Source of the DNA: Patescibacteria group bacterium
GTDB lineage: Bacteria > Patescibacteriota > Minisyncoccia > UBA6257 > Colwellbacteraceae
Assembly: GCA_023380305.1 (NCBI GenBank)
Contig: JAMCQZ010000006.1
Coordinates: 1-58,281 of the forward strand
Direction: 5' to 3'
Length of the DNA stretch: 58,281 bases
Shown: positions 12,989 to 38,828 of the stretch, one piece after another
Numbering within the stretch: the stretch's first letter is position 1
Layout: each line of letters starts with the position of its first letter
Made by a program: the position numbers and the translations under genes
Notes under the pieces: generated by a model
The model's input: the letters and a program-made list of their open reading frames with translations, nothing else
What the model was told of the DNA's origin: nothing
The model's database searches: none

Positions 12989-13060
12989 GATTTAATTTTA
13001 TTAAACCAAAATCATCTGGCAAGCCGGTCGTAGTGGAAAAACTCCTTAACTTTATAAAAG

Positions 13061-13147
13061 CGGAGAGGGCGAGATTCGAACTCGCGATACCCTTTCGGAT
13101 ATAACAGTTTTCAAGACTGTCGCCTTCAACCACTCGGCCACCTCTCC
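13061..13147 (-). tRNA. tRNA-Ser(UGA)
   Basis: Minus strand GGAGAGG...ACAGT-ctTGAaa-ACTGT, long variable arm, GTTCGAATC T-loop, CCTCTCCG end; CCA not encoded. Confidence 0.95.
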
Positions 13148-13462: not shown

Positions 13463-13552
13463 GGAGGGTTCGCATAGTGGTCTAGTGCGCCGCACTCGAA
13501 ATGCGGTTTCCCGGAAACGGGATCACAGGTTCAAATCCTGTACCCTCCGCCA
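13463..13552 (+). tRNA. tRNA-Ser(CGA)
   Basis: GGAGGGT/ACCCTCC acceptor stem, CCGCA-ctCGAaa-TGCGG anticodon arm, long variable arm, encoded CCA at 13550-13552. Confidence 0.95.
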
Positions 13553-37765: not shown

Positions 37766-37955
37766 CACGTATTTGAAGGAGTGGCAGGGGATCTCGCTGC
37801 TCGCCAGTACGGGGTTATTATAAGCGCGGAGTCTGTCTGAAAATATCCGAGCAGAATTCTTTGAGATCGGTAGGCGGAATTTCCTCTTACTTCATTTTCT
37901 GCCGTACCCTCGCTTTGCCTGCTCGACTAAAACTTATGAGCGAAGGCAGGAACCG
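37766..37955 (-). ncRNA. Candidate structured RNA or 5' leader upstream of the ATPase, family unassigned
   Basis: Nested complementary blocks: GATCTC/GAGATC, CTGCTCG/CGAGCAG and GGCAG/CTGCC, plus a second hairpin at about 37908-37950. No known family matched by eye. Confidence 0.35.
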
Positions 37956-38046
37956 GGGCGGAAAGGATAATTTCAAATTTTTCTTTGGCGGAAAATTATT
38001 TTTACAATCACAACTAATGTTTTCACAACTGATATAATTTTTTGTA

Positions 38047-38352
38047 TTACAGATTTTTCTTTAACCAGAGATACTGATTTCTTAGAAAGATAATATAAAA
38101 TAGTGAAAGCAAAATCTTGAACCCTCGTAAATTACTGCCACATTCAAAATTGATATTACTATCGTTGACATCAAAATTAACTGTATTACTACGACACCAA
38201 TCTATTTTCAAATACAACTGATGAACACCTTTTGGCACCTCTAATGTAATTTCTTGGCCATCTCTTAGCTCTCCGATTATCTTTTCATCTAGAATAACTT
38301 TATAGGCGCGCATACTATCTGTGTATCCCGAGTCTCTTCTGATTTTTATCAT
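38047..38352 (-). CDS. AT-rich hypothetical protein
   Basis: 101-aa ORF with a beta-rich N-terminal part and C-terminal hydrophobic segment; DNA visibly more AT-rich than the flanks. Confidence 0.7.
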   Translation of the reverse strand: MIKIRRDSGYTDSMRAYKVILDEKIIGELRDGQEITLEVPKGVHQLYLKIDWCRSNTVNFDVNDSNINFECGSNLRGFKILLSLFYIIFLRNQYLWLKKNL

Positions 38353-38393
38353 ATTATTATTTGTATAATCTTTTGAAACGGGGCTTTATTTTG

Positions 38394-38478
38394 CGGAGAG
38401 GCAGGGATTCGAACCCTGGATACCTTGCGGTATATTCGCTTTCCAAGCGAACGCACTAGGCCACTATGCGACCTCTCC
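38394..38478 (-). tRNA. tRNA-Ser(GGA)
   Basis: Minus strand GGAGAGG...TTCGC-ttGGAaa-GCGAA, long variable arm, GTTCGAATC, CCTCTCCG; CCA not encoded. Confidence 0.95.
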
Positions 38479-38724
38479 AAGCGTATTTTTTAATTTGTTT
38501 TTCAGAATTTTTCTTCCGTGCCCAGTTTTGAAATATCGTTCAGCTTCCCGCGCGTCGTCTTCGTTAATATATACTTCGCAGAATATTAATTCAAACTTTC
38601 CATTTCGGGCGGTAAAATCGGAATGACCATCGTTATGCTCTTTAAGTCTTCTTTTTAAATTATTTGTGAAGCCTTTATAAAGCTTGTTATTTTTCTTAAA
38701 TCTTAAGACATAAAAATAATATAT
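38464..38724 (-). CDS. Small GIY-YIG nuclease (YazA/UPF0213-like), ATA start or start-loss pseudogene
   Basis: Translated by hand: IYYFYVLRFKKNNKLYKGFTNNLKRRLKEHNDG...AREAERYFKTGHGRKIL...TLGEVA*. No in-frame ATG, GTG or TTG after the upstream stop. Stop codon lies inside tRNA-Ser(GGA). Confidence 0.8.
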   Translation of the reverse strand: MYYFYVLRFKKNNKLYKGFTNNLKRRLKEHNDGHSDFTARNGKFELIFCEVYINEDDAREAERYFKTGHGRKILKNKLKNTLGEVA

Positions 38725-38730
38725 AACTTT

Positions 38731-38798
38731 TAGGCCACTCCCGCCTCTTCGGCGGGTGCGCCGAAGAGGCGCAATGCGACCTCTCCCGAGCGTATTTT
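38731..38798 (-). pseudogene. Duplicated 5' fragment of tRNA-Ser(GGA) plus leader, interrupted by a 34-nt palindrome
   Basis: AAAATACGCTcgGGAGAGGTCGCAT[34 nt]AGTGGCCTA, versus AAAATACGCTtGGAGAGGTCGCATAGTGGCCTA at the intact tRNA. Confidence 0.85.
38740..38773. repeat. 34-nt GC-rich compound palindrome (REP/MITE-like)
   Basis: CCCGCCTCTTCGGCGGGTGCGCCGAAGAGGCGCA folds as one 12-bp stem with a 4-nt loop, or as two 6-bp hairpins. Confidence 0.8.
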
Positions 38799-38799
38799 C

Positions 38800-38828
38800 A
38801 GCTTATACTCTTGCGGGTCTTTTCTCAA
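38800..38828 (-). promoter_or_regulatory. Probable promoter of the tRNA-Ser(GGA) locus
   Basis: Minus strand TTGAGA, 17 bp, TAAGCT, directly upstream of the duplicated leader. Confidence 0.5.

Follow-up and report, generated by a model that had tools for sequence, protein, structure and literature searches.

Islands and prophages that target tRNA genes by means of a tyrosine or serine integrase carry a copy of the part of the gene that they displace, duplicating the 3′ part of the tRNA, so that it remains functional, and leave direct repeats. In fungal mitochondria, mobile open reading frames (mORFs), known from atp6 of Allomyces macrogynus and from atp6, atp9 (GIY-YIG), cox2 and nad3 of Glomus, bring a replacement C-terminal gene end, which can be foreign, and leave the native end behind as a duplicate, a mobility that has been attributed to a double-strand break in ORF-less alleles (PMC3630166). 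Fungal mitochondrial double-hairpin elements or GC clusters are outlined as short, GC-rich units of two hairpins in AT-rich genomes, intergenic as well as within structural RNA genes, and suspected of being mobile (PMC10085805, citing Paquin et al. 2000). In the bacterial Candidate Phyla Radiation (CPR), GIY-YIG ORFs occur in rRNA genes within non-intron insertions at the top or base of stem-loops, and were judged to be sparse and outside homing (PMC11270868). Here we describe a GIY-YIG gene inside a tRNA-Ser gene of a Patescibacteria group bacterium, in a stretch of 58,281 nt (hereafter ‘the window’: contig JAMCQZ010000006.1 of assembly GCA_023380305.1, positions 1 to 58,281). The 308 nt that interrupt this tRNA gene are probably one copy of a very small selfish element, moved in a homing-type manner by its own nuclease; mobility of the element is well supported by comparison with related loci, while the specific repair route is less certain.

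Architecture of the element at tRNA genes and evidence of its movement

The window element lies inside the gene for tRNA-Ser(GGA), at the boundary of D-stem and D-loop (Table 1; window coordinates refer to the minus strand unless otherwise stated). Resident nt 14-86 are joined to nt 1-13 brought by the element, which leaves the tRNA intact and identical (86/86) to those of two related hosts (L081 and L082, see below), and resident nt 1-13 stay upstream as a dead fragment. The final codons of the nuclease ORF, GGA GAG GTC GCA TAG, are at the same time tRNA nt 1-15: the element-borne nt 1-13 encode the terminal G-E-V-A and the T of the stop codon, and the TAG (38466-38464) is tRNA nt 13-15. The two copies of nt 1-13 (38774-38786 and 38466-38478) form a direct repeat identical at 13/13 positions, which extends by a further 18 nt upstream to a total of 31 nt with 26 matches and two 1-nt indels; its local alignment score of 21 compares with 7-10 in four control windows from the same locus. 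A 6-nt spacer separates the piece of tRNA nt 14-22 from the ORF, and the ORF has a GC content of 0.33 against 0.50 for the window.

The initial annotation of this DNA had described a minimal, integrase-less GIY-YIG cassette that occupies and rebuilds the 5′ part of a tRNA gene, and this architecture is borne out in both the window and its relatives, as is the description of an 86-codon, AT-rich ORF that ends on the TAG of the tRNA D-arm (PF01541; GC 0.33; nt 13-15). Its statement that no integrase or transposase is nearby also holds: Pfam finds no integrase, transposase or recombinase within ~6 kb of the element, and the neighbours (RmuC, GroEL, LemA, M48 peptidase, P-type ATPase, PspC, GDH, Ddl and DnaG) are ordinary housekeeping genes. 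Other details required revision. Insertion had been placed at the 5′ end of the tRNA, but it falls within the D-arm, with nt 13 on one side and nt 14 on the other; the broken copy does contain nt 1-22, as had been said, but these are split after nt 13 by a 34-nt double hairpin; and the element, given as ~260-300 bp, measures 308 nt and includes this overlooked double hairpin. The repeated ‘leader’ consists of KLKNTL-like last codons of a GIY-YIG ORF and is probably no tRNA leader, and the promoter supposed upstream of the broken copy is not supported by a consensus scan of the minus strand, which found neither a sigma-70-type promoter nor an intrinsic terminator there.

Two familiar classes of insertion were considered and rejected for the window locus. 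An integrase-mediated tRNA island does not fit a sole ORF of 86 codons, the lack of a recombinase within ~6 kb and the duplication of the 5′ rather than the 3′ part of the tRNA. A group I intron carrying a homing endonuclease is rejected because Rfam, at gathering thresholds and also at E <= 10, matches nothing except the tRNA (the hairpin cassette thus belonging to no known RNA family), and because the tRNA is restored through DNA duplication rather than splicing.

Evidence of movement comes from related hosts, three of which were reached via homologues of the P-type ATPase that neighbours the element in the window; an exact look-up of this ATPase itself found no record. The tRNA-Ser locus is syntenic in the window and in two of these hosts, L081 and L082, whose ATPases are 76% and 66% identical to that of the window, respectively. 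In L081, an older and different GIY-YIG ORF (ending in RERQIKSYKGGIAFKKILGEVA and a stop) runs straight into an intact tRNA, and both the cassette and the ORF of the window's close clade are absent. L082 has a remnant of the older ORF, truncated at its N-terminus, and beyond it tRNA nt 1-13, the cassette, an ORF of 86 codons that is intact and starts with ATG, and the tRNA. A single insertion, between nt 13 and 14, separates the two loci, and the element is present (window and L082) or absent (L081) at one fixed site among relatives, which supplies the kind of element-free allele that the initial annotation had suggested looking for. The older ORF, a member of another clade (...PWKVIYTESYNDKRDAWLRERQIKSYKGGIAFKKI(I)LGEVA), is fused to the tRNA-Ser 5′ end in both hosts (L081 1-94; L082 2695-2865), and the site was therefore already occupied before the present element arrived.

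The ages of element and host also disagree. The ORFs of the window and L082 share 90.4% of their sequence, and 79% when third codon positions alone are compared, whereas the ATPase genes of the same two hosts are only 70% identical, with 49% at third positions; in addition, the ORF has 33% GC in hosts of 46-52% GC. Judged by these sequence comparisons, the element copies are much younger than their hosts, of foreign GC and of horizontal origin. L081 is more closely related to the host of the window than L082 is but has no element, so that either the same site was entered on two occasions or transfer of the element took place after the hosts had diverged. In a further case, two loci of one metagenome-assembled genome (L038 and L048) have unrelated flanks, and their homology begins exactly at tRNA nt 1 of the upstream fragment.

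A locus with repeated occupation (L015, 2947-4030) shows what the element brings with it. Three different GIY-YIG genes surround a single tRNA-Ser(TGA), two stacked upstream and the third downstream, in the order: resident nt 1-13 (GGAAGGG...), close-clade cassette and ORF, second-clade cassette and ORF, intact tRNA, third gene. The cassettes are of two types, one located in the D-arm and the other in the anticodon loop after nt 35. The intact tRNA carries GGAAGGG, as does the dead resident fragment, whereas the close-clade ORF ends in a foreign acceptor copy (GGAGAGG) that runs to nt 35; this foreign copy indicates that the nt 1-13 at the 3′ end of the element travel with it. A target-site duplication made upon insertion fits the identical pairs of nt 1-13 found elsewhere (19/24, see below; the two window copies are likewise identical), but is contradicted by the foreign copy in L015.

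Similar architectures are widespread among relatives. We fetched 80 related loci from contigs representing one genome per species and called their tRNAs with ARAGORN. The initial annotation had proposed to look in such relatives for enrichment next to tRNAs and for flanking duplications of tRNA fragments, and both are found: of 77 ORFs whose stop could be read, 55 terminate between -25 and +15 nt relative to the start of a same-strand tRNA, compared with 7 of 1897 control ORFs from these loci, and an upstream broken copy of the tRNA 5′ end scores >= 14 in 41/59 loci, controls scoring mostly 7-12 and the few high-scoring ones being real extra copies. In the close clade (60-73% identity) the overlap is always one of 14 nt with tRNA-Ser, with the stop codon on T13-A14-G15; a 14-nt overlap of ORF and tRNA is seen in 20 related loci. 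The distant clades stop 1-13 nt before, or overlap, tRNAs for Ser, Cys, Tyr, His, Ile, Leu, Glu, Ala, Thr and Asp. A broken fragment of nt 1-13 was found in 24 close-clade loci and is identical to the local tRNA in 19/24. As the architecture recurs in >50 independent assemblies, misassembly, which the initial annotation had kept in view, is excluded as a general explanation.

These loci also record the fate of the element. Sister clades insert in the same way at other stem-loop boundaries of tRNAs, and repeated invasions stack, with the older copies decaying upstream. Premature stops or frameshifts interrupt the ORFs of L025, L038, L041 and L055, and such frequent degenerate copies are the decay typical of selfish elements. 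Remnants of earlier occupants are seen in L001 and L023 and, probably, in the window. In the last case, it is the 18-nt stretch upstream of the broken copy that matches the place where the older GIY-YIG ORF ends in L081 and L082; from its DNA resemblance it is probably such a remnant, and in the 43 window codons upstream of the broken copy no protein similarity to the older ORF of L082 is detectable.

A number of loci show further peculiarities. Gene callers skipped the intact ORF of L082 (2916-3176), and in three predicted proteins (P0163, P0164 and P0165) the N- or C-terminal extensions are translated cassette and tRNA fragment (...RIAPLRRIRRRGGS...). Beside the elements of L011 (3247-3336) and L049 (2808-2895), ARAGORN calls a tRNA-Ser with anticodon ACT, an unusual anticodon that may mark damaged or chimeric tRNA copies. 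Two loci have a mirror-image arrangement: in L069 (2911-3332; Peregrinibacteria) the ORF has an intact tRNA-Ile on its upstream side and, downstream, a full copy that bears two cassettes, and in L064 (2729-3400; Cyclobacteriaceae, outside Patescibacteria) the ORF lies 3′ of a tRNA-Leu and is followed by the 3′ part of the tRNA, with a double hairpin in the T-loop, and by a repeat of the downstream flank.

Table 1. Parts of the occupied tRNA-Ser(GGA) locus in the window.
Feature	Coordinates	Strand	Remarks
Whole inserted element	38466..38773	minus	308 nt; between tRNA nt 13 and 14; made up of the hairpin cassette, a few bases resembling the D-loop, the nuclease ORF and an element-borne copy of tRNA nt 1-13
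18 nt similar to the final codons of a GIY-YIG ORF	38787..38804	minus	AAGCTGAAAATACGCTCG vs AAATTAAAAAATACGCTT
Broken upstream copy of tRNA-Ser nt 1-13	38774..38786	minus	GGAGAGGTCGCAT; displaced resident 5′ part
GC-rich double-hairpin cassette	38740..38773	minus	34 nt; 5′ end of element
Cassette hairpin HP1	38757-38773	minus	TGCGCC-TCTTC-GGCGCA
Cassette hairpin HP2	38740-38756	minus	CCCGCC-GAAGA-GGCGGG
tRNA nt 14-22	38731..38739	minus	AGTGGCCTA; resumes exactly 3′ of cassette; strict split-match test, 9 nt
GIY-YIG nuclease ORF	38464..38724	minus	86 codons + TAG; ATA at the ATG position
Element-borne tRNA nt 1-13	38466..38478	minus	5′ part of working tRNA
Intact rebuilt tRNA-Ser(GGA)	38393..38478	minus	ARAGORN; Rfam 56.6 bits

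Directly 3′ of the rebuilt tRNA, the window contains an ORF of 101 codons and 33% GC (38047-38352 minus; flanks ~37900-38390), with a weak match to DUF2846 and another weak one to a phage ‘lipoprotein’. It is missing from L081 and from a further relative, L084, where a terminator hairpin follows the tRNA, and it looks like a second, separate AT-rich insertion on the 3′ side of the tRNA. The window has two other tRNA-Ser genes, both empty: tRNA-Ser(CGA) (13463-13552, plus strand), which starts 13 nt after a tRNA-Ala and has the same D-arm as the occupied tRNA (GTTCGCAT/AGTGG, the slash here and below marking the insertion point or its equivalent), and tRNA-Ser(TGA) (13060-13147), which has the other type of D-arm (GTGGCCGAGTGG).

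The nuclease and the hairpin cassette

The predicted protein matches the GIY-YIG domain over residues 3-72 (PF01541, E = 5.6e-15; 55.8 bits, the curated cut-off being 22.6). Among 5.8 billion proteins searched there were 42 relatives of ~86 residues and 62-77% identity, the named ones being Patescibacteria; nearly all of them begin MYYFYVL and end G-[GER]-[VIF]-A, as encoded by a tRNA 5′ end. Across these 43 sequences, conservation reaches at least 90% at residues Y6, Y17 and R27 and is complete at H31 and E63, and all five, which we take from I-TevI and UvrC to be the catalytic GIY Tyr, YIG Tyr, Arg, His and metal-binding Glu, are kept in the window copy. The family is considerably larger when searched by profile, with 1247 clusters at 50% identity (E <= 1e-10) among 1.84 billion cluster representatives. 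A phage collection yielded two weak matches (41% identity), both to Listeria phages, and no sign of a phage vector.

The AlphaFold2 model (pLDDT 93.2, pTM 0.82) consists of the secondary-structure elements of the GIY-YIG core only, and Pfam likewise finds a catalytic core and no sequence-specific DNA-binding domain. In the Protein Data Bank (PDB), the sole significant sequence matches are 1zg2 (E = 4.7e-8) and 1ywl (2.7e-7), the UPF0213 proteins BH0048 and EF2693; by fold, Foldseek ranks 1zg2 (BH0048, UPF0213) best, followed by the Slx1 structures 6sei, 7cq2 and 4xm5 (TM ~0.65-0.69, probability 1.00), with I-TevI (E = 1.7) and UvrC (E = 2.3) far behind UPF0213 and Slx1. Both sequence and modelled fold place the protein in the GIY-YIG superfamily, in its Slx1/UPF0213-like stand-alone branch. 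By analogy, the predicted nuclease may act like a homing endonuclease, yet it is not a protein of the I-TevI or Seg type. The ORFs of the window and L082 have diverged at 14 synonymous as against 8 non-synonymous codons, which, together with the conserved catalytic residues, points to purifying selection on the protein.

The window copy itself appears to have decayed only recently. Its reading frame is otherwise intact, but an ATA sits where nearly all 42 homologues, as well as the 90% identical L082 orthologue, use ATG, and no ATG, GTG or TTG occurs in frame anywhere upstream of the ORF. As the ATA replaces the ATG and there is no other in-frame start, the copy is probably dead, and it is most likely a recently inactivated relic with a lost start codon (ATG to ATA). 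Of the two options offered initially for the ATA, low expression or early decay, the second agrees with this reading. The window copy is nevertheless a genuine member of the family and the positional orthologue of the L082 copy.

The hairpin cassette is the second conserved component of the element. In every clade, the upstream tRNA copy is split by a GC-rich palindromic insert of 25-65 nt (GC 0.66-0.80), after which the tRNA resumes at exactly the next base and continues for 5-19 nt; a strict exact-match test of prefix, insert and resumption was passed by 34/56 loci. The insertion points are stem-loop boundaries or loops. They lie between nt 13 and 14 in the close Ser clade; between nt 12 and 13, 8 and 9, 13 and 14 and, once, 35 and 36 in the second, Ser/Cys/Tyr clade; between nt 12 and 13 and also 22 and 23 in the Glu clade; and between nt 20-22 and 21-23, and once 13 and 14, in the Asp/Ile/Thr/Ala/His clade.

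An alignment of close-clade cassettes from 27 loci, in which orientation and position relative to the ORF are fixed (27/27), supports a structure of two hairpins: 99.4% of cells are paired, five pairs have compensatory changes and 0/500 shuffles do equally well, and the stems contain no one-sided (G-U type) changes. A single long hairpin, which forms a perfect 13 bp in the window, was rejected on covariation (86.9% paired, with 498/500 shuffles as good). The DNA fold of the window cassette has an energy of -21.6 kcal/mol (z = -4.1), and cassettes are nearly two-fold symmetric, with 0.65-1.0 identity to their own reverse complement. This near symmetry and the absence of wobble intermediates hint that the cassette acts at the DNA level or as a protein-binding site; it may mark or protect the dead copy, bind the nuclease, or be a non-autonomous partner. 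The conserved cassette forms an integral component of the element.

Some cassettes are found in other settings. In L070 (3392-3498), a full-length tRNA-Ile is interrupted by a cassette alone, between nt 21 and 22; an intact tRNA-Ile lies next to this interrupted gene, and sequence variants of the interrupted gene recur in the upstream dead copy. Further solo cassettes lie outside tRNA genes (L020 1762-1795; L021 2356-2392), and with L011 these are the few solo copies listed; over 416 kb, motif hits number 23 at a distance against 141 beside an ORF. Two different cassettes occur within one dead tRNA copy in L077, L078 and L069. The CCCGCCCG...CGGGCGGG cassette has its inner part reverse-complemented in one of the upstream tRNA copies of L075 and L079 relative to the other, which suggests that this cassette lies in either orientation or inverts in place. 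The cassette is also better conserved than the ORF, with 34/34 identical positions against ~86% between L038 and L048, and 57/59 in the cassette region against 90% between the window and L082. One lineage of the family without tRNA linkage (L016, L019, L021 and L085-L094), which has the same cassette, is located directly at the stop codon of a TPM_phosphatase gene (C-terminus ...GGFGGFGGGSSGGGGSSGSW), and the junction GGTTCGTGG/T resembles the tRNA site GGTTCGCAT/.

How the element may move, and rival explanations

We propose that the element spreads by homing, in the manner of free-standing homing endonuclease genes and of the fungal mitochondrial mobile ORFs. As suggested initially, it may be transcribed from the promoter of the tRNA and cut off by RNase P. 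The nuclease would break an unoccupied tRNA gene at the D-arm boundary, and the break would be repaired from an occupied copy, for which the tRNA itself would provide the homology arms, nt 1-13 on the left and nt 14 onward on the right. Because the arms come from the tRNA, the element could cross between genomes that share only this tRNA. A working tRNA would result only where the inserted nt 1-13 fit the 3′ strand of the resident acceptor stem, and both the 19/24 identical copies and the location of the L015 mismatch in a dead copy would follow from such a requirement. Both junctions end ...GTCGCAT, which makes a route by cutting and rejoining conceivable as well.

How so small a protein would find its target is a separate matter. 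Recognition of DNA structure, such as hairpins or cloverleaf-like DNA, is possible given the lack of a DNA-binding domain and the likeness to Slx1. We raise, as a tentative and somewhat doubtful extension, that the bare Slx1-like core finds its targets by DNA shape, that is, at extruded stem-loop boundaries of tRNA genes and at palindromic cassettes. If true, this would be structure-guided homing of an element of ~300 bp, with the 30-35 nt cassettes as its non-autonomous partners, and a new mode of moving; targeting by shape would also explain how, across Patescibacteria, one small family came to occupy ten or more tRNA species and perhaps rRNA genes too.

Several observations weigh against homing by a mobile element. 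Cleavage, target site and transfer are all argued by analogy. The rebuilt tRNA keeps the presumed target (GTCGCAT/AGTGG), which leaves the escape of the occupied allele from re-cutting unexplained, and 13 nt make a short homology arm for recombinational repair. The identical 13-nt copies in 19/24 loci also fit a duplication made at insertion. The second tRNA-Ser of the window with the same D-arm (13463-13552) carries no element, and one lineage of the family is stably located after the TPM_phosphatase gene, away from any tRNA; an identical protein was never seen in two contexts, with P0024 found after TPM_phosphatase only (10 places shown, 24 contigs). Recombination between the 13-nt repeats could have removed the element from L081, which would then be a revertant rather than a site that was never occupied, but such a precise loss would leave the young age of the element copies unaccounted for. 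Finally, scans of metagenome contigs for exact matches gave 0 hits for an empty allele of the window lineage and, with a 41-mer common to the window and L082 ORFs, 0 hits for further close copies; because the second scan also missed L082 itself (from JGI sample 3300037067, in which L081 is found too), the collection is incomplete and these zero counts carry little weight.

The cassettes themselves might be the primary mobile entities, similar to miniature inverted-repeat transposable elements (MITEs) or double-hairpin elements, entering the loops of tRNA genes, with the GIY-YIG gene as a nuclease acting in trans or as a mere neighbour; the ORF and its tRNA duplication would then persist by supplying an intact tRNA where a cassette had destroyed one. 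Solo cassettes without an ORF, two cassettes in one dead tRNA copy, both orientations in the Asp/Ile/Thr/Ala/His clade, better conservation than the ORF, and the precise tRNA position of each cassette with exact resumption afterwards would all be expected from such a history, which may be complementary to nuclease-driven homing rather than exclusive of it. We nonetheless consider it unlikely that cassettes came first: solo copies are few, the fixed orientation and position throughout the close clade are those of one co-inherited unit, and the difference between L081 and L082 would need two events in place of one insertion of cassette, ORF and nt 1-13. A separate model invokes a circular or hairpin-folded intermediate that is integrated by a host recombinase, as Xer does for integrative mobile elements exploiting Xer (IMEX), with the cassette and its tRNA flanks as an attP-like site. 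When joined end to end, the element does carry a target-like site (nt 1-13, cassette, nt 14-22), and the stems without G-T pairs and the near two-fold symmetry suit a structure acting as DNA. We find this model very hard to credit, as none of the 80 loci has a linked recombinase and there is none near the window copy, the positions vary within a clade (8 and 9, 12 and 13, 13 and 14, 35 and 36) in a way that a fixed att core would not, and the conserved nuclease gene would be left without a role.

It is also conceivable that the GIY-YIG gene is not mobile at all but a vertically inherited housekeeping gene that is co-transcribed with the tRNA, perhaps serving tRNA or DNA metabolism, and that tRNA fragments and hairpins are by-products of local duplication or gene conversion. 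The constant context of the TPM_phosphatase-adjacent lineage in 10 places, synteny of the tRNA-Ser locus among the window, L081 and L082, purifying selection on the protein, the apparently suitable but empty second target in the window, and published fusions of stand-alone GIY-YIG domains to tRNA methyltransferases (PMC1564403) would agree with a resident gene. This explanation seems to us improbable, since it is at odds with presence and absence among close relatives, with copies much younger than their hosts and of foreign GC, with occupation of at least ten different tRNA species, with up to three different GIY-YIG genes stacked at one tRNA and a foreign acceptor sequence in one copy (both L015), and with frequent pseudogenes. 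Homing of a selfish element thus remains our preferred reading of the window locus.

Significance and comparison with described systems

If it moves by itself, the element would be among the smallest autonomous mobile elements known, with ~310 bp, one protein of 86 residues and one hairpin cassette, and the strategy of carrying a spare gene end, used by mORFs and integrase islands, would extend to the 5′ part of bacterial tRNA genes and dispense with a recombinase. A large family (the 1247 clusters above) has so far been annotated merely as ‘GIY-YIG nuclease’ or ‘excinuclease ABC subunit C’, missed or over-extended, and the poorly understood UPF0213/YhbQ-like branch of GIY-YIG proteins is offered a testable function. 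Such elements would also give a handle on horizontal gene transfer among uncultivated Patescibacteria, and could yield a compact nuclease whose targeting depends on DNA structure or on tRNA genes. As the stop codon lies inside the tRNA (38464-38478), cutting the transcript where the tRNA begins would yield an mRNA that lacks its stop. This may hold down expression of the predicted nuclease and would be an unusual control on a potentially toxic enzyme.

Set beside integrase islands, the window element differs in having no integrase, in duplicating nt 1-13 of the 5′ part and in its size of ~0.3 kb. The nearest proteins in sequence and fold, Slx1 and UPF0213 (YhbQ-like), share its minimal domain without a DNA-binding module; Slx1, however, is a structure-specific repair nuclease that works with Slx4, and for UPF0213 we found in the searchable literature no description of a role in mobile elements or of a linkage to tRNA genes with duplications. 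Nor did the full-text literature, in a coverage that excludes most subscription journals, yield any report of GIY-YIG elements occupying the 5′ part of tRNA genes in bacteria. The insertions in CPR rRNA genes (PMC11270868) come from the same bacterial group and likewise place GIY-YIG ORFs inside structural RNA genes in a form other than introns, but they concern rRNA genes, and that report makes no mention of tRNA genes, gene-end duplication or hairpin cassettes. The cassette resembles the double-hairpin elements of fungal mitochondria, as these are outlined in PMC10085805, in being a short, GC-rich unit of two hairpins, here supported by covariation, in having intergenic copies as well as copies within structural RNA genes, and in being suspected of mobility; it differs from that description in being bacterial, in lying precisely at stem-loop boundaries of tRNAs and in its position nearly always beside a GIY-YIG ORF.

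Closer in behaviour are the GIY-YIG homing endonucleases of phage T4. Its segB is an intron-less GIY-YIG gene in a tRNA gene cluster, and it is expected to spread when an allele that lacks the gene is broken and then repaired with co-conversion (PMC2330249), much as we propose here. Seg proteins have a DNA-binding domain, however, and their genes lie between other genes, whereas the window element encodes a bare catalytic core, lies inside the tRNA gene and requires a duplicated piece of that tRNA.

The closest described systems are the mORFs of fungal mitochondria, and the window element is best read, by analogy, as their bacterial counterpart at the tRNA 5′ end. In both cases an endonuclease ORF sits inside a gene, its own copy of the gene end is fused to the resident part, and the native end is left as a dead duplicate, an architecture that we meet in the window and in 34-41 related loci. 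The differences are that the host gene is a bacterial tRNA gene rather than a mitochondrial protein gene, that the 5′ and not the 3′ end is replaced, that the replacement is only 13 nt long and overlaps the last codons of the nuclease, and that the whole element of ~310 nt comprises little more than a nuclease of 86 residues and a conserved hairpin cassette at the junction.

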